A stretch of DNA of 8,364 nucleotides, taken from IMG/VR virus record IMGVR_UViG_2778261360_000001, positions 1-8,364 of that record; one strand, 5' to 3'. Source of the stretch: a virus. Its lineage: Duplodnaviria > Heunggongvirae > Uroviricota > Caudoviricetes. Below the pieces are notes generated by a model. That model did no database searches, was not told the DNA's origin, and saw only the letters and a program-made list of their open reading frames with translations. The first letter of the stretch is position 1; every line of letters begins with the position of its first letter. The translations under genes and the position numbers were made by a program. This document shows, piece after piece, positions 1-8,364 of this stretch.

Positions 1-56
1 GAAGCAGAAAAAGCTTATTATGCTTCCATCGGAAACGATGATCTGGCAGCCTGAGT

Positions 57-1064
57 TCACAGATAAAATACTCTCCAGGAAACCCGGGGCGGTTCAGTTT
101 CCAGAAGCGCATCAGTTTCACGGATTGGTACACCACGGAATGAAGTCCACCACTCGCCTTCAGTCTCTTTTACGCTGATAGCCAGAGATGTTTTCTCCAG
201 AGATTGCAGATCAAGAGCCTGGCCTACAGTGCGGTTCATGTAGAACACCGGGCGACCCATGCCACGGTTTGGAATGCGATGCAGTGCTTTAACCATCAAC
301 TTCGCAATATTTGCGGCAGAGGAAGGTTCTGAAAGATTGCTGACATCGATGTTTGCAATGCGAACAACATAACGCCAGTCACGCAGAGCAAGTCCGTTGT
401 CCCATTTGTAATGGGTACGGTAGCCTTCGTACTTGCCGCCATTAACATCTTCCAGTGTCACCTGGCCTTTATCTTCCATCTGGATGCCAGCCTTCTGCCC
501 TTTCGGGAAGATGCCATGCACGGTGTTTTCGCCCCACACCACTAACCAGATTGAGGTGTTATCTGTACCCGTGCCACCAGCATCAATGATGTTCTGAGCA
601 TTACCCGCAGACAGGCTGGAATAGCGGGAGGACAGTCCCATAAACTGCTGAGGGTTAACGCTGGAATCACCATAAAACAACGTCTGCGCCATCTGCTGAT
701 TCATCGCTTCAATAAATGCGCGGTCTTCAGACAGGCGGAATTCGGCGGTATTACCGTTCAGATCAGCCAGTGACTTATCGACTTCAGCATAGGTTTCCAG
801 CATTCCAACGGAATCGGTGACCTGCACTGTGGTTGATTTGCTTGGCTGTACGCCATAGTTCAGCAAACGCCAGGTGGCTGAAGGTAAACCAGAACGAATG
901 GTGGTTCGGTGTCCGGTAGGAAGGTTCCCTTCGACAAAAGGCATATCCTGAAGGATCGGGTTAGTTTGACCGAGAAGCTCGATAATCTTATCGACTTTCC
1001 CGTTTGGATCGACGCGCTTACCCCAGTCAGCCAGCGTTAGCGCAGTTAAGCCTTTAACAGCCAT
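57..1064 (-). CDS. Major capsid (coat) protein, about 335 aa. The start is probably the second ATG at 1064; the longest ORF starts at 1070.
   Basis: Long intact minus-strand ORF directly downstream of the scaffold-like gene, in the canonical portal-scaffold-capsid order. The SD-like AGAGGAA at 1071-1077 gives about 7 nt spacing to the ATG at 1064 but only 0-2 nt to the ATG at 1070. Size (about 37 kDa) fits a coat protein. Family not confirmed by search. Confidence 0.7.
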   Translation of the reverse strand: MAVKGLTALTLADWGKRVDPNGKVDKIIELLGQTNPILQDMPFVEGNLPTGHRTTIRSGLPSATWRLLNYGVQPSKSTTVQVTDSVGMLETYAEVDKSLADLNGNTAEFRLSEDRAFIEAMNQQMAQTLFYGDSSVNPQQFMGLSSRYSSLSAGNAQNIIDAGGTGTDNTSIWLVVWGENTVHGIFPKGQKAGIQMEDKGQVTLEDVNGGKYEGYRTHYKWDNGLALRDWRYVVRIANIDVSNLSEPSSAANIAKLMVKALHRIPNRGMGRPVFYMNRTVGQALDLQSLEKTSLAISVKETEGEWWTSFRGVPIRETDALLETEPPRVSWRVFYL

Positions 1065-1078
1065 TGTCATTTCCTCTC

Positions 1079-1774
1079 TTATTTGCCATAGAGCACTTCG
1101 GCCGCACTACGCTGGCCTTCATTACCACCGGTGACCATGCCATCTTCAGACATCGCCTTTCCGATTTTCACGAACGTTTTGACCAGATCAGGGTGATTAC
1201 CCAGCCCGGTGGTGTTCAGATATTCTTTGAGCTCAGGTGTCCCGAACTGGTCAAGCGCACGCTGTGCGGCGCTAAGGTTAGAAATCAACTTGTCGCCACC
1301 GATTTCTTTGTCAGCTTTTACATCCGCAGCCCACTGCTCGGTTGTTTTCTGCCAGGCTTCTGCCTGGCGCTGCTGAACACCTGCCAGAATCTTCGGATAA
1401 GCATCAACCAGCTTTTGCGCTTGCTCGTTGGTCAGGTTAAGTTCTCGCGCCACCGGCTCGAATTCCTTCAACGCTTCTGTATCCAGCTCTACGCCTTCGG
1501 CAGCCTGAAACTCGTACTTCTCAGGCGCACCCTCTGGTTTATTGCCGTCCTTTTTTTCATCCTGCTTATCGTTTTCAGGCTTTTTGTCATCAGCAGGTTT
1601 ATCGCCATCAGCAACAGGTTGTGGCTTATCACCTTCCTGTTGTGATGGATCACCAACTGGAGCAGGGTTATCACCTGCAGGCGCTGACGGTTCTGACGCA
1701 GCCGGAGCTGCTCCACCATCGACTGGTTGCTCATTGCAAAGACGGCGATACAGCAAACGCTCAAATAAATTCAT
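1079..1774 (-). CDS. Putative scaffolding protein, about 231 aa from the ATG at 1774. The listed ORF begins at a GTG at 1780 that overlaps the upstream stop.
   Basis: Acidic, Lys/Glu/Pro-rich low-complexity N-terminal half and a helical-looking C-terminal half, sitting between portal and capsid. AGGAG lies 5 nt upstream of the ATG at 1774 (minus-strand sequence CAGGAGTGATCATG). Confidence 0.6.
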   Translation of the reverse strand: MNLFERLLYRRLCNEQPVDGGAAPAASEPSAPAGDNPAPVGDPSQQEGDKPQPVADGDKPADDKKPENDKQDEKKDGNKPEGAPEKYEFQAAEGVELDTEALKEFEPVARELNLTNEQAQKLVDAYPKILAGVQQRQAEAWQKTTEQWAADVKADKEIGGDKLISNLSAAQRALDQFGTPELKEYLNTTGLGNHPDLVKTFVKIGKAMSEDGMVTGGNEGQRSAAEVLYGK

Positions 1775-1776
1775 GA

Positions 1777-2073
1777 TCACTCCTGTTCACTGGCCTCTTT
1801 GGCCATCTTCAAATACTGTTCAGGGCAATGCGCCATAACGCGCTGAAACAGTTCCAGCGCCAGATTGCGTTGCCCCTCATTAAATGCCATTGCCATAGCG
1901 TCCATCGGTGAGATAGCGGAAAACACACGGCCTTTCTCCAGCTCCGACCAGACAACGCGACGCCCCTGTTCACTGCTCATGACAAAGCGAATGTCATCAA
2001 TTTCACGCTGCGCCATGTCACGTTGCTTACGGGCGTTTTCTTCTTTCAGTTGATCGTCTTCGTAATCTGTCAT
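1777..2073 (-). CDS. Hypothetical head-assembly-associated protein, 98 aa
   Basis: ATG start overlaps the portal stop (ATGA) and its TGA stop overlaps the scaffold start region, so it is translationally coupled within the operon. No recognisable motif. Confidence 0.55.
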   Translation of the reverse strand: MTDYEDDQLKEENARKQRDMAQREIDDIRFVMSSEQGRRVVWSELEKGRVFSAISPMDAMAMAFNEGQRNLALELFQRVMAHCPEQYLKMAKEASEQE

Positions 2074-3503
2074 TGTGATTGCCCACCCTGACCACTAACT
2101 GCATTCGCCATAGCTGACAAAACACTCGGATCCGAAGTTTTAGCTTCGCTTAGCGTCTTGGCACCCTGTGCCGCCGCCATCCCCATCGCCATCATTTGTT
2201 GCTGCTGTTGCTGCTGTGCCCGTTGCTGGCGAGCCTGCTCAACCTGTTCCTGCGGAACAATGACGGTTGGAGACACTCCGGACATATCAGCGAATGCATC
2301 GATCGCCTGATCAACGTTGAGTTTGTCGAGAGCTTCTGGTTTCGCTTGCGCAAGTTGACCAATGAAGTTAACCGTGGACGCCAGACTGGACAGGCCGATA
2401 GACTTCTGAGCCTGAGCCATGACGGAAATGTATTCGACCTTCAGGGGCATGCCTTCCATCGCGTCAGGCGGTGGCGGCAACATGTTTTTACGCACCATCA
2501 TCGAGAAAGCGCGGTCAATGAGAGGATTAAGACATTCGTCGTTCAGACGCTCCAGAACCGGCCCCAACATCAGAAGTTTTTCTTCTTTCATTTCGATCAC
2601 CGCTTCAACAGGCATCGAGCGGGTATTGATGTTCTGCAACATCATGAACAGATCGACAAAGTAGGCGCTGTTAATGATTTGCCGAGTGTCCTGAATGTCT
2701 GCTACCAGATCTGCTGTACTGGGGTTAACCAGATAAGCAGGCCTGAAGCCATCCTGACCAGTAATCTGATCGATATACGTGATGTCGCCAGGAAGAAGGG
2801 AGGTGCGCTGATTCTTGAGGGAAGTCGGAGCAACCATCGGCGGATTGGTGGCTTTATCAATCAACTGCGACTTGCGCTTCTGGAGAAGCTGCAATGCCTT
2901 AACAGGTCCAAGCGCCAGCATACCCGGGCATGATGATCCATAAACATCTTCGCCGTTAACTTCCCAGCGCGGAGCCATAATTGGAAACTCATCGAATCCT
3001 GACTCACGCAACAACTTGTCGTTATCGCCACCAACCTCGTAATAAACCGATTTGAATGGCTTGTTCTTGCTATCCAGCTTCGATGTATCGCGGTCAATGT
3101 TCGGGTAAACCGAATGCATCACTTCAATCCACTTCTCGTAGGTACCTCTTTCCCACATGCTTTTTACGGATTCGCTGACGTTATTTAGCCCGAACTCCTG
3201 AACAAGCTGACGAACAGTCATAGAGAACTTGCGAAAACAGGTGTCCACACTGCCACGAGGTGAGTTAGCCAGGTAGTAACTGCCTATCGGGAATGGCATT
3301 GTGCGAATGATGTCCTCGTCATCCTCCAGTACCGCCATTGCACCGGTGCTGTATGTGCCGAGGCTTCCGTATAACTGCGGCAGCGACTGATAGAGATTCG
3401 ACTTATTGAACATATCGTTCATGCGGTTCTGCACCGCCTCAAGCCACAACTTAACAGGGCCATAATCCATCATTTCAGGATCTGGCGTAGCCAGCGAAAC
3501 CAC
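2070..3503 (-). CDS. Portal protein, C-terminal segment (frame B) of a frameshifted portal gene. The ORF-finder start is an internal GTG with no SD.
   Basis: 477-codon ORF immediately downstream of terminase and upstream of scaffold and capsid. Its reading frame is open upstream of the nominal GTG and overlaps the end of ORF 3470-3748 in another frame. Contains a poly-Gln tract near the C-terminus. Confidence 0.7.
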   Translation of the reverse strand: MVSLATPDPEMMDYGPVKLWLEAVQNRMNDMFNKSNLYQSLPQLYGSLGTYSTGAMAVLEDDEDIIRTMPFPIGSYYLANSPRGSVDTCFRKFSMTVRQLVQEFGLNNVSESVKSMWERGTYEKWIEVMHSVYPNIDRDTSKLDSKNKPFKSVYYEVGGDNDKLLRESGFDEFPIMAPRWEVNGEDVYGSSCPGMLALGPVKALQLLQKRKSQLIDKATNPPMVAPTSLKNQRTSLLPGDITYIDQITGQDGFRPAYLVNPSTADLVADIQDTRQIINSAYFVDLFMMLQNINTRSMPVEAVIEMKEEKLLMLGPVLERLNDECLNPLIDRAFSMMVRKNMLPPPPDAMEGMPLKVEYISVMAQAQKSIGLSSLASTVNFIGQLAQAKPEALDKLNVDQAIDAFADMSGVSPTVIVPQEQVEQARQQRAQQQQQQQMMAMGMAAAQGAKTLSEAKTSDPSVLSAMANAVSGQGGQSQ

Positions 3504-3748
3504 GGACGCGCGGGGCTTGTGATGCCTGACATCATGCCGCTGGCGAGAGTGCGCGCCGCCATAGTCCCGGTCGAATCAATAATGCGTGTATTGCGTCGAT
3601 CGTTACGGTTGACCTCAGAAGTCAGAAAGCGGGAACCACGCGGGTTGATGTAATCACTCAACTCGCGCCAGTGCGGCTCGAACGACTGACGCTCGCTTTC
3701 AAGTTGTGCGAACTGTTTGTTCAATCGCTCTTTAGTTGTTTCCGCCAT
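3470..3748 (-). CDS. Portal protein, N-terminal segment (frame A); probable 5' part of the same portal gene, interrupted by a frameshift near 3501-3515
   Basis: ATG at 3748 is preceded by GGAG with 8-nt spacing (CGGAGTCATTGAAATG on the minus strand). The ORF ends inside the open upstream frame of the 477-codon ORF. The two pieces together would give a portal of about 560 aa. Confidence 0.6.
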   Translation of the reverse strand: MAETTKERLNKQFAQLESERQSFEPHWRELSDYINPRGSRFLTSEVNRNDRRNTRIIDSTGTMAARTLASGMMSGITSPARPWFRWLRQILK

Positions 3749-3762
3749 TTCAATGACTCCGG

Positions 3763-3969
3763 TTACTGACCAAGCAGCGTTTTACCGCTGGTATTAGCGG
3801 TTGATGTGTCGCCCTGAGAACCGGTAAGCAGCGTAGAACTACGACCAGCAGCAGCGCGACGGCGACGTGTTTCTTCGTCGCGGGCATCAACAACGGCGGC
3901 ATCCTGCTCCTGTGGTGCTGCCTGAACTTCTGGTGTTGCAGGCACTGATGGTGAGCTACCCATGCACAT
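3763..3969 (-). CDS. Small hypothetical protein, 68 aa, Ala/Pro/Gln/Arg-rich and low complexity
   Basis: Its ATG is preceded by exactly the same 12-nt initiation cassette (CGGAGTCATTGA, then 1 nt, then ATG) as the portal N-terminal ORF. Position corresponds to the small gene often found between terminase and portal. Confidence 0.4.
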   Translation of the reverse strand: MCMGSSPSVPATPEVQAAPQEQDAAVVDARDEETRRRRAAAGRSSTLLTGSQGDTSTANTSGKTLLGQ

Positions 3970-4037
3970 ATCAATGACTCCGTACGCAATTAAATTATTA
4001 CCAATTTAACCACATATGATTTATTTATCGTAGATAG

Positions 4038-4066
4038 TTGACATTTAACGCACGAATCATTACCTT
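4038..4066 (+). promoter_or_regulatory. Candidate sigma70-type promoter: TTGACA (4038-4043), 17-bp spacer, TACCTT (4061-4066)
   Basis: Perfect -35 hexamer with a 17-bp spacer and a weak -10 (T1, A2, T6 conserved), in an AT-rich intergenic stretch upstream of the plus-strand leader and tRNA. Confidence 0.3.
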
Positions 4067-4396
4067 TCAGGTAAGCAAAGAGTTCATTCCGGTTATTAAC
4101 CTGACTGGCTTGTCGTTAAATTGAACAGGTGGAGTGAGCTTTTATTTTGAGCAGTACGGCGTATGGCACATGCGCCGATAGCGGTCTGGATACGTTTAAG
4201 GGGCACCCTCCCTTGCTCGAGCAAACGAACCAGGTAGCCGGAATGTGCAAGTCGAGCGGTTTTATTCCGCGCACGGGGATTCACCATCCCGGCGATTCGG
4301 TGTGACGCCTCGGAAGAGACGAGGGTACAACGATGAGAGCATTTATGGAGCCGCGACAAAGTGTGGCGCCTTAACAGGCTAAGTGCTCTCAGCGTT

Positions 4397-4473
4397 GTGG
4401 CATTAGCTCAGTTGGACAGAGCAACCGCCTTCTAAGCGGTTGGTCGCAGGTTCGAATCCTGCATGCCACGCCA
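4397..4473 (+). tRNA. tRNA-Arg, anticodon TCT (reads AGA), 77 nt with encoded CCA
   Basis: Hand-folded cloverleaf: 7-bp acceptor stem (GTGGCAT/ATGCCAC, all Watson-Crick), D-arm GCTC/GAGC with A20, anticodon stem ACCGC/GCGGT, loop CTTCTAA (U33, anticodon TCT, A37), T-arm GCAGG-TTCGAAT-CCTGC, discriminator G, CCA. Resembles host argU but has different acceptor and anticodon stems. Confidence 0.9.
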
Positions 4474-4516
4474 GAATCACGCCTAAGGACCGTGATGCCA
4501 GAAGTTCCAGGGGCTT

Positions 4517-4558
4517 GGCGGTGATGGTTTCCCTTGAAGGACTATCACCGCCCTTTTT
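4517..4558 (+). terminator. Putative intrinsic terminator downstream of the tRNA
   Basis: 9-bp stem GGCGGTGAT (4517-4525) pairing with ATCACCGCC (4544-4552), then C and TTTTT (4554-4558). The loop is large (18 nt). Confidence 0.45.
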
Positions 4559-4636
4559 ACAGCAGGACGCCATTGCGATGACTTCATGCTGTAAACCCGT
4601 ACAGCCACGGAAGGCATAACTCATTGCTTCCAGTTC

Positions 4637-4660
4637 GCCCGGTTCGCCGGGCATTTTTTT
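4637..4660 (+). terminator. Intrinsic terminator or attenuator immediately upstream of the RBS of the 123-aa gene
   Basis: 6-bp GC stem GCCCGG (4637-4642) pairing with CCGGGC (4647-4652) around a TTCG tetraloop, followed by A and TTTTTTT (4654-4660). The T-run runs straight into AAGGTGAGATT-ATG. Confidence 0.6.
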
Positions 4661-4671
4661 AAGGTGAGATT

Positions 4672-5043
4672 ATGAACGACCAGCAAATCGAAAAAGAAAT
4701 CGTTGAGAAAGGCAAAACTGCTCCGCGCGTTACGCCAGACCATATCGGAAGCATTATTGCTCAGGAGGCATATTTCACAGCAGAGGATGGTGCCTTTGGC
4801 AAAGCCATAAAAGCGAAACATACTGGCGGAGAGGTAAACTACCAGCCGCACGAATCACTTTCTCTGCTGACGTTCTGCGTCCTGGTGCTGCGCAACGGCT
4901 TCACCGTCACCGGAGAGAGTTCCTGTGCAAGCCCGGAAAACTTTGATGCAGAAATTGGTCGGAAGATTGCCCGACAGAATGCTGTAAACAAAATCTGGAT
5001 GCTTGAAGGTTACTTGCTGAAGCAGAAGTTAAGCGAGCAATAA
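4672..5043 (+). CDS. Conserved phage protein of unknown function, 123 aa; tentatively resembles the phage Gp49 (N4 gp49 / Sf6 gp66) family
   Basis: Only convincing plus-strand ORF. AAGGTGA SD lies 4-5 nt before the ATG, and it is flanked by terminators on both sides. Family assignment is from memory of the motif and is not verified. Confidence 0.7.
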   Translation: MNDQQIEKEIVEKGKTAPRVTPDHIGSIIAQEAYFTAEDGAFGKAIKAKHTGGEVNYQPHESLSLLTFCVLVLRNGFTVTGESSCASPENFDAEIGRKIARQNAVNKIWMLEGYLLKQKLSEQ

Positions 5044-5046
5044 CAC

Positions 5047-5060
5047 CGTGACATGTCACA
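5047..5060. repeat. 14-bp sequence CGTGACATGTCACA with a 12-bp perfect palindrome core (GTGACATGTCAC), copy 1
   Basis: Identical 14-mer also at 7312-7325. Lies just after the stop of the 123-aa gene and in the 3' flank of terminase large. Confidence 0.8.
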
Positions 5061-5063
5061 AAC

Positions 5064-5090
5064 AGCCAGCCTATGAGCTGGCTTTGTTTT
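5064..5090. terminator. Bidirectional intrinsic terminator between the convergent 123-aa gene and terminase large subunit
   Basis: 7-bp stem AGCCAGC (5064-5070) pairing with GCTGGCT (5077-5083), 6-nt loop, TTGTTTT on the plus side; AAAACAAA precedes the hairpin on the minus-strand transcript and a GTTTGTG tract follows it. Confidence 0.6.
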
Positions 5091-5133
5091 ATCCTCACCA
5101 GAGGATATCAACGACATTATCCCCACCAGAGGA

Positions 5134-6609
5134 TTAAGCATAGGGATCGTAATCTGTGATGGCCTTGCCTTGCTGGTTCTGCTGCCCGGGAATTCGCAGA
5201 CGCTTCGACACAGGGAACGCAAACGTCAGCAGTAGCGCATCGCCTTTACCAGGAGAACGCCCAAGCCGCTCTTTGATATCTTCCTTCGGTTCGATAACGA
5301 TTTTACCGTCCACTCGAACTTTGTACTCTGCCGCCGACAGGTCGTCCGCTGTTTCCTGGTCATCCAGCATGCCGCCGAGCCTCAGCCATGTCTTGCATGC
5401 ATTGAACATCTCCCCACGCTTGTTAAGCATCTGCGGGTCAGTGGACGCACCGCCGAACGGAACAAGTTGCCATGTACGACCCCAGCCGTCACCGATTGAC
5501 TTCAGACCGGTACCGTAACCAAAGTCGATGAACACTGCGTCAGCCTGATACTGGTCTTCAAAGTCAGCGATACGCTTCGCCATAATCAGATCGTCGGTGG
5601 TCTTGTTACCAGTCCATAGCACCTTACTGTGCAGCCCCTGCCGCAGGTATATCACAGCGTCATCAACGCCGGAGTATGCCGGGTCAACGCCGATTATCAC
5701 CGGAGCATGTGCAACCTGCGCAGCGGTTACCACCCGTTTCATTGCCTCGTCAGTAAGGCCGGTAGGGATAAACTGCAATTCAGATGCATCCGGGAATATG
5801 CCGCGCACACGGATTTTAACGAAGTCGCTGTCTTCCCCGTAGTCATCAACCCATTTCTGCAACTGCTGTTTGTTAGTGCCTTCCACCGTCCGGCTGTCAA
5901 TCTGCGCAGTTTTCCAGCGGTGTTTATATTTGCGGAAACATTCGCGAAAACGCCCGGTGTTACGTGTAGGGTTTCCGAACGCCACCCAGATGATTTCGGT
6001 GTCTTCGTCCGTCAGCGCACCCTCTGCTACCTCCCACACCAGATCGGCAATGTTCGACGCTTCATCGAATACCACGATGATGCGTTTGCGCTCGTTGTGT
6101 AGTCCGGCGAATGCCTCAGTGTTGTGCTCAGACCAGGGGATTGCGTCAGCTCGCCACCGCTTGTCATGCCCAGGGTCATTGCTGTACATCGCGGTAGCAG
6201 TACAGGTAAACCAGTATTTCGTGATAGCAAGGTTCGACCACTTGATAATTTCCGGCCAGGTCTTCGTTCGTAGCTGGTTGTCGGTGTTGGCGGTCACCAC
6301 GACCTTACAATCCTCGCAAGTGGACATGCCCCAGTTGATCAGCATTGAGATGAATGCGGATTTACCAATACCGTGACCCGAAGCACGTGCCAGCATAAGC
6401 GGCTGATAGCGCGTCTCTGGATTCTGCAGGTGATCACGTATCTCTCGGAACGCATCAGCCTGCCACTTACGTGGACCGGTGGCATGTGCTAATTCAGTCC
6501 CCTCTTCCCCCCACGGGAACGCATAGAGGGCATAGCCAAGCGGATCGTGAGTGAACCCTGCAATATCCTCGATCAACTGCTCTTCAGGAGATAACGCTGT
6601 ATCTGTCAC
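5134..6609 (-). CDS. Terminase large subunit, 491 aa, GTG start overlapping the terminase small stop (GTGA)
   Basis: P-loop-like motif (ASGHGIGKS) in the N-terminal ATPase region, acidic-residue-rich C-terminal half consistent with a nuclease domain, size, and translational coupling to the upstream small-subunit gene. AGGA lies about 9 nt upstream of the GTG. Confidence 0.88.
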   Translation of the reverse strand: MTDTALSPEEQLIEDIAGFTHDPLGYALYAFPWGEEGTELAHATGPRKWQADAFREIRDHLQNPETRYQPLMLARASGHGIGKSAFISMLINWGMSTCEDCKVVVTANTDNQLRTKTWPEIIKWSNLAITKYWFTCTATAMYSNDPGHDKRWRADAIPWSEHNTEAFAGLHNERKRIIVVFDEASNIADLVWEVAEGALTDEDTEIIWVAFGNPTRNTGRFRECFRKYKHRWKTAQIDSRTVEGTNKQQLQKWVDDYGEDSDFVKIRVRGIFPDASELQFIPTGLTDEAMKRVVTAAQVAHAPVIIGVDPAYSGVDDAVIYLRQGLHSKVLWTGNKTTDDLIMAKRIADFEDQYQADAVFIDFGYGTGLKSIGDGWGRTWQLVPFGGASTDPQMLNKRGEMFNACKTWLRLGGMLDDQETADDLSAAEYKVRVDGKIVIEPKEDIKERLGRSPGKGDALLLTFAFPVSKRLRIPGQQNQQGKAITDYDPYA

Positions 6610-7202
6610 TGATTACCATCCTGACGTTCTTTGAGTCGCTTCCTGGCTGCTGCTATGCGATCAGCAATTGTCACATTCACATTAACATCCAGACGTTCTT
6701 TGAACGCGTTGACATCAACATGCTTACCAATCATCTCAAGGTTCTTCACCTTGTCAGGCCATTTAATTTTTTTGAGGATTGTCTCTATCGAATCCTCGTT
6801 CATGTTCATGATGGTCGATGACAGATCAAAGCCACTAAGCGTAGTGCGCCAGATTTTCGGCCACTCACGGATTGGTTTAAGGCTCCCATCGTCGTTGAGG
6901 ATGTCGATCACGTCCATCTGGTCGATCTCCACCAGGCGCATGAGAACGTAATCAGCACTGACGCGCATTCGTTTGTTGCGCTCCTCCATCAACTCGGCAA
7001 TCCGTTTTTGAATGCGTTCATCGCGCATCATGACACTGGCTTTAACTGCCGCTGTATTTGGGGAGAATCCTGCGTTAATCGCTGCCTGAGTCTGGTTTTC
7101 AGGCGTTTTGATGTATGACTGGCAATAAGCCTCCTGCATTGCTGTTAGTGGCTTAAATTGCGTTGATTTGCGTTTATAGGTTTTATGTTCAGCAGGCATC
7201 AT
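6606..7202 (-). CDS. Terminase small subunit, about 198 aa. Start is at the ATG-ATG pair at 7202/7199; the ORF-finder extension to 7280 uses a TTG and runs through a terminator hairpin.
   Basis: N-terminal region (KPLTAMQEAYCQSYIKTPENQTQAAINAGFSPNTAAVKA...) matches the helix-turn-helix N-terminus typical of phage small terminase subunits. Lies immediately upstream of, and overlaps, the terminase large gene. Confidence 0.8.
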   Translation of the reverse strand: MMPAEHKTYKRKSTQFKPLTAMQEAYCQSYIKTPENQTQAAINAGFSPNTAAVKASVMMRDERIQKRIAELMEERNKRMRVSADYVLMRLVEIDQMDVIDILNDDGSLKPIREWPKIWRTTLSGFDLSSTIMNMNEDSIETILKKIKWPDKVKNLEMIGKHVDVNAFKERLDVNVNVTIADRIAAARKRLKERQDGNQ

Positions 7203-7209
7203 AACCACC

Positions 7210-7238
7210 GTGGTAATAGTTACCGTTGTGGTAATAGT
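7210..7238. repeat. Two exact 11-bp direct repeats, GTGGTAATAGT at 7210-7220 and 7228-7238, each followed by (T)ACC, directly upstream of the terminase small start
   Basis: Read directly from the sequence; 18-bp periodicity. On the minus strand the unit is ACTATTACCAC, repeated twice. Confidence 0.8.
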
Positions 7239-7243
7239 ACCAT

Positions 7244-7271
7244 GCAAAATAAAGCCGCCATAGTTGGCGGC
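7244..7271 (-). terminator. Intrinsic terminator on the minus strand between the small upstream genes and terminase small
   Basis: 7-bp stem GCCGCCA/TGGCGGC with a 4-nt loop (7254-7271), followed on the minus-strand transcript by UUUAUUUUG (plus-strand 7244-7253 is GCAAAATAAA). Confidence 0.6.
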
Positions 7272-7311
7272 AGTATTCAAAACCCATCAAATTCATCATG
7301 CATAATCTACT

Positions 7312-7325
7312 CGTGACATGTCACA
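7312..7325. repeat. 14-bp sequence CGTGACATGTCACA (12-bp perfect palindrome core), copy 2; overlaps the stop codon of the RHH-like ORF
   Basis: Identical to 5047-5060. Confidence 0.8.
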
Positions 7326-7659
7326 CTATTAATTTCGTTTCATGCCAGCCTTTGGTCACCCAGCATTGCGAGTCACCATTACACGGGCATGAATTCACAG
7401 GAACTCTCTCGCCGCACTTACCGCAACGTTTTCTGCTGATCGATTTTATACGCCCGCGCACGCGTGCATCATCCTGGCGGATCAGCAGCGCGATGTACTC
7501 GGCCATTTCATAGGGATCGCGACCAGGGCGCCGGGCGGCGCAGTTCCGCGCCAGCATTTCCTGCTCCTGCTTATCCAGCACCAGTTCAATTTTGCGCTCA
7601 CCGGCGGCGGACTGCCGAGCGCGCTGCGCGGCTTTGCGTTCTGCGGGGGATTTAGCCAC
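7321..7659 (-). CDS. Putative small DNA-binding protein, about 112 aa: ribbon-helix-helix-like N-terminus and Cys-rich (zinc-ribbon-like) C-terminus. GTG start at 7659 or 7668.
   Basis: An RKIELVLD strand-like segment followed by a helix fits the RHH pattern; C-terminal CGKCG...CPC...C cluster. No ATG until codon 38 of the longest ORF. GGAG lies 8 nt upstream of the GTG at 7659. The start region overlaps the end of the 40-aa peptide ORF. Confidence 0.5.
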   Translation of the reverse strand: MAKSPAERKAAQRARQSAAGERKIELVLDKQEQEMLARNCAARRPGRDPYEMAEYIALLIRQDDARVRGRIKSISRKRCGKCGERVPVNSCPCNGDSQCWVTKGWHETKLIV

Positions 7660-7774
7660 GAATCGCACTCCACGCCAGATTGATTAATGACTCCCAGGCA
7701 ATATAAACCCGGATACCAGCAGCCAGGCCGAAACCAATCACCATGGCATAAAGCAGAGCGTTGCACTTGTTCAT
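7652..7774 (-). CDS. Small hydrophobic membrane peptide, 40 aa (MNKCNALLYAMVIGFGLAAGIRVYIAWESLINLAWSAIRG); not in the supplied ORF track
   Basis: ATG at 7774 overlaps the TAA stop of the DUF551-like gene (TAATG) and is preceded by a strong SD (AGGAGGTGAAGTA-ATG). One predicted transmembrane segment. Hand-translated from the sequence. Confidence 0.5.
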   Translation of the reverse strand: MNKCNALLYAMVIGFGLAAGIRVYIAWESLINLAWSAIRG

Positions 7775-8079
7775 TACTTCACCTCCTGTTTCGGCACTGC
7801 TGGCATTTCACGCCAGTGCGTAACTGAGTGCGGATCCGGATATTCGGTGCCATCATCCCAGCGATTGCCATTCCACATTGCAGACCACATCTCACCGTCT
7901 TCATACATGACCATTACCGGAATTAACTTATCTGGCATCTGCTCACTACAGCTTATCCAACCATCCTTAATGCAATTACCTTGACTCTGAAGCATAGCGG
8001 CACGACAGGCGTTCCAGCCTCTCACCTCTGCAATAGCGGCAACAGCATCGACCGCGTACATTTTAAGAGGGTTAGGCAT
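7774..8079 (-). CDS. DUF551-like phage protein, 101 aa
   Basis: C-terminal segment W-x(n)-P-x(n)-VTHWREMPAVP resembles the conserved C-terminal motif of the DUF551 family common in lambdoid early regions. Weak SD. Recognised by eye. Confidence 0.6.
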   Translation of the reverse strand: MPNPLKMYAVDAVAAIAEVRGWNACRAAMLQSQGNCIKDGWISCSEQMPDKLIPVMVMYEDGEMWSAMWNGNRWDDGTEYPDPHSVTHWREMPAVPKQEVK

Positions 8080-8148
8080 TGGTTTTTCTTCAGGTACTAC
8101 TGGAATGGGTGGGGCGGCGTAGACCTCAATAATTCCATTATCAATAGG

Positions 8149-8364
8149 TCATTCTCCATCCTTGAGGTAGTCACTTGTGCCGTCAACTTGCTGTTCTGCA
8201 ATGTGGAATGCACCTATTGGTTTTGCTTCCAGCGATGCCAGAGCAATTCGTGCCAGTTCTTCCGCTTCTTCTGCTGGCAGTACAACGTTGCTACCAGGTC
8301 CGTATGTTTCGCGCCACTGCTTGATTGTCAGCAGTCGCCCTTTGGTAATAGTGATCATGCCGCG
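8149..8364 (-). CDS. Hypothetical protein, 5'-partial at the window edge; the frame is still open at 8364
   Basis: ORF in the same frame as the DUF551-like gene, separated from it by a single TGA (8149-8151) and 23 sense codons. The ATG at 8358 may be internal. Confidence 0.4.
   Translation of the reverse strand, partial: RGMITITKGRLLTIKQWRETYGPGSNVVLPAEEAEELARIALASLEAKPIGAFHIAEQQVDGTSDYLKDGE

Follow-up and report, generated by a model that had tools for sequence, protein, structure and literature searches.

Tandem intrinsic terminators in front of an exchangeable cassette slot in a phiV10/epsilon15-like prophage

Described systems and the terminator pair

Tandem intrinsic terminators are known from T1-T2 of Escherichia coli rrnB, which stop a stable-RNA unit before the next gene. 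The window examined here, the whole 8,364-nucleotide (nt) stretch of the Caudoviricetes record IMGVR_UViG_2778261360_000001 (positions 1 to 8,364), carries two such terminators in series between a tRNA-Arg gene and a gene for a protein of 123 amino acids (aa). By their anatomy and conservation, both hairpins are genuine plus-strand intrinsic (Rho-independent) terminators, and the T-run of the second abuts the Shine-Dalgarno (SD) sequence of the gene. We consider it moderately probable that the tandem terminators insulate the terminase gene terL and that the promoterless gene behind them, a putative sponge gene, is expressed by read-through. The original prediction had described two successive terminators between the tRNA and the 123-aa gene, the second with a GC stem, a UUCG loop, and a seven-T run beside the SD, and these elements are all present at the following positions.

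4517 to 4558, plus strand: terminator 1, a stem-loop (4517-4552), one C, and five T (4554-4558).
4637 to 4660, plus strand: terminator 2, GCCCGG-UUCG-CCGGGC (4637-4652), A4653, and seven T (4654-4660).
4661 to 4674, plus strand: translation start region AAGGTGAGATTATG, with the SD AAGGTGA (4661-4667) and the ATG (4672-4674).
4672 to 5043, plus strand: the 123-aa cassette gene, assigned by Pfam to the Acb4 / N4 Gp49 / Sf6 gp66 family (PF13876).

The likeness to rrnB T1-T2 is one of arrangement, drawn without a sequence test: two intrinsic terminators stand in series, approximately 100-170 nt apart, downstream of a stable RNA gene. Unlike in rrnB, a protein gene with a strong SD lies right behind the second terminator, and the unit belongs to a prophage and carries a repressor operator. 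A terminator before a promoterless gene, with the downstream product made from the read-through fraction, is also found in rpsU-dnaG-rpoD (T1) and at the rplL-rpoB attenuator. Those terminators lie between protein genes of the same pathway and set their stoichiometry, whereas the cassette here is exchangeable and unrelated to the upstream RNAs. In lambda PR'-6S RNA-tR' with Q, in N/nut, and in HK022 put, a short RNA ends at a strong terminator before read-through-dependent genes, and conserved RNA structure upstream of the terminators is shared with the present locus. The analogy is functional only, since neither boxA/boxB nor a put-like two-stem element was found, no alternative pairing is present, and no Q- or N-like antiterminator gene is annotated in the relatives phiV10 or epsilon15.

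The locus also resembles a phage moron in the definition of Juhala/Hendrix, being an extra unit with a candidate promoter and a terminator, in its own orientation, between genes that are adjacent in phage Ab31. It differs from morons in being compound (non-coding RNAs plus a cassette slot) and in its promoter, which is seemingly controlled by the repressor rather than expressed in the lysogen. Among viral sponge genes (Acb4, PF13876; Tad2, PF11195; Acb2/Tad1), the 123-aa protein matches PF13876, and the same slot in relatives holds Tad2-like and Acb2/Tad1-like genes. The closest described counterpart of terminator 2 lies upstream of the gp49/66-like gene of phage epsilon15 (AY150271.2, 2559-2582), where it is annotated as a rho-independent terminator. 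It is homologous, has the stem GCCCAC/GTGGGC, and abuts the same SD; unlike in the window, the tRNA and the 5' half of terminator 1 have been lost from epsilon15, which leaves it a single terminator. A literature search gave no account of Uetakevirus anti-defence loci or transcript maps, and the sponge papers that were read are silent on this locus and its regulation.

The terminators and the border of the cassette slot

The hairpin of terminator 1 is GGCGGTGATGGTTT/CCCTTGAA/GGACTATCACCGCC, with 14 pairs including three G·U and an 8-nt loop, and folds at −22.8 kcal/mol (z −3.6). The stem of terminator 2 consists of six G-C pairs closed by the UUCG loop and folds at −12.7 kcal/mol (z −3.1). Both have the anatomy of an intrinsic terminator, a GC-rich stem-loop followed by a U-run on the transcribed strand, and both are within the three top-listed terminator-like sites of a consensus scan. 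Sites of the grade of terminator 2, defined as at least six pairs, all G-C, with at least seven T in eight, appear in 1 of 300 dinucleotide shuffles of the window on either strand; for the grade of terminator 1 the number is 13 of 300. On the minus strand, no T-run lies beside either hairpin, and both terminators are therefore unidirectional. Judging from this anatomy, they are likely to be good terminators.

Phages of E. coli, Salmonella, Klebsiella, and Enterobacter share the block that extends from the tRNA trailer to the T-run of terminator 2. Scanning viral contigs with a sequence pattern yielded a further 119 metagenomic loci; as the pattern was a palindrome in the spacer between the terminators, the invariance of 4569-4597 in those loci arises by construction, and conservation there is judged from 13 GenBank phages only. 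Pairing statistics were obtained by aligning 50 distinct loci of relatives, which cover four host genera. Terminator 2 is paired in 99.7% of the cells; at two pairs both partners have changed (G-C to A-U and G-C to C-G), turning GCCCGG/CCGGGC into the form seen in epsilon15. For the outer 8 base pairs (bp) of terminator 1 the figure is 93.7%, again with two compensatory pairs, and the T-run does not vary. Both structures have thus been maintained in evolution, with few independent events, since the compensatory changes come from 14 sequences that are essentially one lineage and its recombinants.

Several natural variants (individual loci carry L numbers) should be noted, as they bear on the readings weighed later. 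The loop is inverted in L055, the 5' arm is gone in L127, and the 3' half of the spacer (4605-4636) is deleted in L043. The whole of terminator 2 is gone in GenBank phage ST11-OXA245phi3.2 and in L071, and in the latter the leader runs directly into a gene. L047 has lost a structured RNA that lies farther upstream. A block of terminator 1, palindrome, spacer, and terminator 2 is also found in the lambdoid Klebsiella phage ST11-VIM1phi8.2 (L138, 2470-2620), next to the nin region; the stem of terminator 2 has decayed there, and the block again runs antisense to the operon around it, with a different gene downstream.

Immediately behind the T-run, the sequences of the relatives diverge in content. 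The SD directly follows the T-run in 94 of the 122 loci with enough downstream sequence (AAGGTG... or AGAGAGG...), and the same SD...ATG behind the T-run precedes unrelated genes in other phages. The cargo is an Acb4/PF13876 gene in about 47 loci including the window, a Tad2-like gene (PF11195) in seven, the Acb2/Tad1 hairpin domain (PF24729) in one, a 201-aa protein in 19, a 296-aa membrane/coiled-coil protein in 17, and one of several others elsewhere; phiv142-3 has an 8-codon stub in the slot. Between the Acb4 gene and other phage groups, homology sets in approximately 3 nt ahead of the ATG. Because the cargo differs behind the junction and this homology begins so close to the start codon, the T-run of terminator 2 together with the SD is the left border of an exchangeable cassette slot. 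The right border is formed by a third hairpin.

5064 to 5093, plus strand: terminator 3, AGCCAGC-CTATGA-GCTGGCT followed by TTGTTTTATC.

Terminator 3 folds at −13.5 kcal/mol (z −3.4) and is also found by the terminator scan. It is annotated in phiV10 as a terminator on the terL strand and is kept in the cassette-less phiv142-3.

The other 28 of the 122 junctions, which were inspected in part, have different sequences. Those that were read (EC.W1-9 and the L050 type) contain GTGACT-17-TAAGAT or TAATAT together with a TTACC..GGTAA operator, an arrangement that resembles a dedicated promoter under repressor control. Such junctions would mean that terminator 2 also separates independent units.

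The 123-aa protein matches PF13876 over profile positions 1-82 of 82 (E 6e-34, 116.8 bits, cut-off 27), and its match to the SPO1 Acb4 structure 9E4W is weak (E 0.0024 over 43 residues). PF13876 is the Acb4 family of cyclic-oligonucleotide sponges (PMC11722364, PMC12265669). Members of the family are homotetramers that bind cyclic oligonucleotides and block CBASS, and the 123-aa protein is assigned to it, as a putative nucleotide-signal sponge, by this sequence match.

Some further sequences around the slot are recorded here. Two copies of a perfect 12-bp palindrome, GTGACATGTCAC, flank terS-terL in the window (5048-5059 and 7313-7324), and it recurs in phiV10 (L014, 2262-2273 and 19493-19504) and epsilon15 (L015, 2142, 19517, and 39612). 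In relatives it is also found at the end of the structural operon, and each copy adjoins an intrinsic terminator. Phage TL-2011b has the similar GTGATACGTCAC behind the T-run of terminator 2. In Enterobacter phage Tyrion (L008, 2066-2130), an int-alpA RNA (RF02996, 44 bits, above the gathering score) lies between two cargo genes.

The spacer, the upstream unit, and their setting

The 80-nt spacer between the terminators contains two conserved elements.

4556 to 4595, unstranded: 40-nt imperfect palindrome TTTACAGCA..GCCATTGCGATGAC..TGCTGTAAA, the left arm of which overlaps the T-run of terminator 1.
4604 to 4631, plus strand: conserved motif GCCAnGGAnGGCA (4604-4616) and a lineage-dependent hairpin GGAAGGCA...UGCUUCC (4609-4631), from the 50-locus alignment.

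The palindrome is near-invariant in the 13 GenBank phages. Its pair 4566/4585 switches from G-C to A-T, and the pairs 4570/4581 and 4564/4587 are C·A or A·C on the plus strand and G·U on the minus strand, where the fold is more stable (−17.1 versus −12.8 kcal/mol). No repeats of the palindrome occur elsewhere in phiV10 or epsilon15. The helix of the hairpin at 4609-4631 is 80.7% paired with no compensatory changes, and its region is deleted in the natural variant L043. Outside the palindrome and the GCCAnGGAnGGCA motif, the spacer varies by lineage. A LexA-box-like CTGT-N8-ACAG (4589-4604) is confined to the E. coli lineage and probably arose by chance.

The gene has no promoter of its own in this region. 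A weak separate promoter, suggested earlier for 4559-4636, did not emerge from a sigma-70 scan of 12 lineages between terminator 1 and the ATG, in which the best candidates scored at most 7.5 of 12 and overlapped the start codon. By eye, TTTACA (4556-4561) as a −35 is followed 17 nt downstream by TGACTT only, TTGCGA as a −35 has no −10, and both were rejected. Spacing of the sigma-54 type was found on neither strand.

A search for an RNA switch was likewise negative. The original prediction had called for a search of the leader for antiterminator pairings with the 5' half of the hairpin; nothing of this kind is conserved in the folds of 10 lineages or in an RNAalifold consensus. Holding the 3' arm of terminator 2 unpaired costs 7.3-12.6 kcal/mol in constrained and truncated folds of those 10 lineages, and RNAalifold of 14 leaders cut before the 3' arm gives only the palindrome and a 3-bp hairpin, with the 5' arm free. 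A leader peptide from ATG 4578 to TAA 4619 (13 codons, MTSCCKPVQPRKA) was rejected, as it lacks both an SD and conservation; its stop codon is not kept, and the 4578 frame of the Salmonella and Klebsiella lineages continues into the cassette. A mini open reading frame (ORF) from TTG 4624 to TAA 4660-4662, running across terminator 2 behind GGAAGG (4609-4614), is recorded only as a remark. Its frame is kept in six of eight lineages, but these have a common ancestry, a stop in TTTTTTTAAGGTGA is in any case encountered by two of the three frames, and coupling is kinetically implausible for 12 codons. With no exclusive antiterminator, no conserved leader peptide, and no known aptamer in Rfam, the conditional expression envisaged in the original prediction is not supported in its classical, RNA-only form; regulation by other means is weighed below.

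Upstream of terminator 1, the plus strand carries the following elements.

4038 to 4074, plus strand: candidate early promoter and repressor operator, with −35 TTGACA (4038-4043), a 17-nt spacer, and −10 TACCTT (4061-4066).
4075 to 4396, plus strand: conserved structured leader RNA, with its core at approximately 4165-4324 and motifs at 4165-4176, 4233-4251, and 4298-4324.
4397 to 4473, plus strand: tRNA-Arg (anticodon UCU) with encoded CCA, found by ARAGORN and by the Rfam tRNA model (73.3 bits).
4476 to 4496, plus strand: conserved trailer hairpin ATCACG-CCTAAGGAC-CGTGAT, with a weak fold.

The −10 is overlapped by a perfect palindromic operator, TTACCTTTCAGGTAA (4060-4074). The combination TTGAC(A/C/T)-N16-TTACCnnnnnGGTAA is kept in every lineage inspected, and the sequence of the spacer between its parts varies. 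The same operator motif is clustered in the immunity region and is also present upstream of terS, gp3, and the tail fibre gene. In the GenBank record of epsilon15, the homologous site is annotated 'repressor, lysogeny', and further such sites are annotated as repressor sites. The prophage repressor thus seems to control many promoters directly, and the element at 4038-4074 is likely to be a repressor-controlled promoter that would fire rightwards.

The three ordered motifs of the structured RNA (GGCACATGCGCC, GGTAGCCGGAATGTGCAAG, and CGGTGTGACGCCTCGGAAGAGACGAGG) are found in 95 of 105 distinct leaders, whether or not a tRNA is present. The RNA holds a T-arm-like hairpin, GGGGA-UUCACCA-UCCCG (4275-4291). 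It folds better on the plus strand (−122 kcal/mol, z −2.85) than on the minus strand (−98.7 kcal/mol, z −1.98), and RNAalifold gives 32 pairs, three of them compensatory. Conserved structured RNAs therefore do sit upstream of the terminators, and none of them matches a known family: Rfam returned the tRNA only for the window at E up to 1 and nothing relevant for eight relatives. The trailer hairpin is also found in relatives with no detectable tRNA.

Two observations concern the surroundings of the tRNA. Directly 5' of it, at 4383-4396, lies the conserved sequence GTGCTCTCAGCGTT, which in relatives (for example, L011 1393-1415) reads CAGTGCTCTTTCCGTTGTGG, a form that resembles the rrn boxA, UGCUCUUUA; in tRNA-less relatives, a sequence of this GTGCTCTCAGCGTT/CAGTGCTCTTTCCGTTGTGG type precedes other RNA-like sequence. 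A 16S-rRNA-like fragment (CUUAUCAGCUAGAUGGUGGGGUAAUGGCUCACCAUGGCGACGAC) is present in L037 (1953-1999) and in the leader of L100, in the non-coding stretch between promoter and terminator 1.

Positions 3900-5200 are 96% identical to Escherichia phage phiV10 and near other Uetakeviruses, and on this comparison the source of the window is a phiV10/epsilon15-like (Uetakevirus) prophage of the epsilon15-like temperate podophage group. Of 5426 complete E. coli genomes, 501 contain the 701-base stretch at 4000-4700 around the tRNA with at least 80% coverage, and the RefSeq annotation there gives only 'tRNA-Arg' and 'Gp49 family protein'. The neighbouring phage genes lie on the opposite strand.

7280 to 6606, minus strand: terS, as called among the ORFs of the window.
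6609 to 5134, minus strand: terL.
3969 to 3763, minus strand: gp3-like gene.

The minus strand also carries the portal, scaffold, and major capsid genes, and on the plus strand lie the tRNA-Arg(UCU) gene and the 123-aa ORF. Phage Ab31, a distant relative, has a small ORF immediately behind terL, a putative gp3 counterpart by its position, and the portal/head-tail adaptor gene comes next. Because the insert is absent from Ab31 and terL there directly adjoins these genes, the plus-strand stretch is, judged from gene order, an inserted accessory unit that lies antisense in the interval from terL to gp3/portal. Its order is candidate promoter/operator, structured RNA, tRNA-Arg(UCU), terminator 1, conserved spacer, and terminator 2. 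As for the own promoter and terminator of a moron, the terminators are present and the putative promoter is a conserved consensus match with an operator.

Three side observations concern the gene models. Compared with phiV10, the portal gene lacks one nucleotide near 3494 on the minus strand (CCAGCG in place of CCAGGCG) and is thereby split into two ORFs, 3748-3470 and 3503-2070; this is either a prophage frameshift or a sequencing error. An 83-aa ORF (4403-4654, minus strand) runs antisense over the tRNA and both terminators and is listed as hypothetical protein PhiV10p04 in phiV10, TL-2011b, and EC.W1-9; a real gene here is very improbable. Within the terS ORF as called mechanically, the 5' part holds two repressor-operator-like sites (7202-7234, minus strand) and a terminator (7271-7254), and the real start of terS is probably the ATG near 7190 (MPAEH...), as in epsilon15.

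Insulation, read-through, and the alternatives

The explanation that we favour is the following. Terminators 1 and 2 would be the tandem 3' end of a small accessory early unit of the stable-RNA type, which would start at the sigma-70 promoter overlapped by the prophage-repressor operator. Since this unit points at the end of terL, terminators 1, 2, and 3 in series would keep its transcription from running antisense into the convergent terminase genes. The phage operon on the opposite strand would not be blocked, because the terminators are unidirectional. The 123-aa gene would be made only by polymerases from the upstream promoter that read through terminators 1 and 2, since it has no promoter of its own and its SD lies right behind the T-run. 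Insulation of the convergent terL, which the original prediction did not consider, appears to be the simplest role for two terminators. The deletion variants fit a linkage of promoter and gene: epsilon15 and L047 both keep promoter, spacer, terminator 2, SD, and gene.

Four points weigh against this explanation. Sponges of this class act stoichiometrically (PMC12265669), and a position behind two good terminators is therefore odd for a sponge gene. In epsilon15 and L047, terminator 2 stands alone in a promoter-proximal leader, which is the classic position of a regulated attenuator. The near-invariance of 4556-4616 is unexplained by a plain tandem-terminator model. The direction of the operator-linked promoter is read from the conserved −35 only.

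The first two of these points keep regulated read-through as the main rival, which we regard as rather unlikely. Here, the structured RNA, the 40-nt palindrome, or both would act as a cis antitermination device of the put or EPS-associated RNA (EAR) type, or a phage or host factor would bind in the manner of N/nut, so that only polymerases from the early promoter pass terminators 1 and 2 and the expression of the sponge cassette is timed. The order of promoter, conserved structured RNA, terminators, and promoterless gene is consistent with such a device, the conservation of the spacer exceeds what the terminators need, and a sponge needs substantial early expression (PMC12265669). However, neither a conserved alternative pairing with the terminator arms, nor an Rfam family, nor an annotated antiterminator gene in phiV10 or epsilon15 was found, and natural deletions affect the spacer (L043) or the structured RNA (L047). 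A processive device would, moreover, pass terminator 3 too, into antisense terL. It is still more doubtful that the structured RNA, perhaps with the palindrome, is a new cis antitermination element that makes terminators 1 and 2 a timing gate for the Uetakevirus sponge cassette (Acb4, Tad2, and Acb2/Tad1-like). If, instead, the spacer and terminator 2 (approximately 4556-4660, about 105 nt) were a small RNA (sRNA) in their own right, or a tRNA-trailer-derived RNA like the leuZ 3' external transcribed spacer (3'ETS), terminator 2 would end that RNA and would not be a control element of the gene. T-runs bound this module on both sides, its left border is kept behind a different hairpin in BUCT711 and L075, the block recurs in the lambdoid Klebsiella phage, and a GC hairpin followed by seven U is typical of the ends of Hfq-binding sRNAs. 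An sRNA of the Hfq type combines a U-run terminator with its own promoter or a processing site; the U7 is present, but neither a promoter (12 lineages) nor an Rfam match was found, only a 3-bp hairpin is conserved outside the palindrome, and 4605-4636 (L043) or the 5' arm (L127) is missing in natural variants. We therefore hold this reading to be improbable.

Little probability is also given to the idea that the hairpins matter mainly on the minus strand, in the transcript of the phage operon, for RNase III processing, stability, or protection from Rho, with the terminator-like look on the plus strand being secondary. The better minus-strand fold of the palindrome, in which the C·A and A·C mismatches become G·U, would fit this idea, the surrounding operon is on that strand in both phage types, and an RNase III site close by on the same strand is annotated for epsilon15. 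The T-runs are nevertheless strand-specific and invariant, the UUCG loop and the T7 tract are plus-strand features, and the structured leader folds better on the plus strand, so that the idea covers the palindrome at most and neither terminator. The last alternative, that the hairpins are chance inverted repeats with no function, has a negligible probability. A generic terminator scan does give 11 sites in the window against 8.3 expected, and the class as a whole is not enriched; sites of the present grades are, however, rare in the shuffles, and their pairing is conserved with compensatory changes across genera.

The terminators themselves are ordinary, and the counterpart of terminator 2 in epsilon15 was already annotated. 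What makes them worth noting is their setting: in a prophage family, a cassette slot begins exactly at the T-run of terminator 2, and anti-defence sponge genes of at least three families replace one another there, mostly with no promoter. More unusual than the terminators are the upstream structured RNA and the slot for anti-defence genes. If the dependence on read-through is true, the locus would be a simple natural system for studying how phages dose and time their sponge proteins, and control elements would be sought first among the conserved RNAs that precede the terminators.

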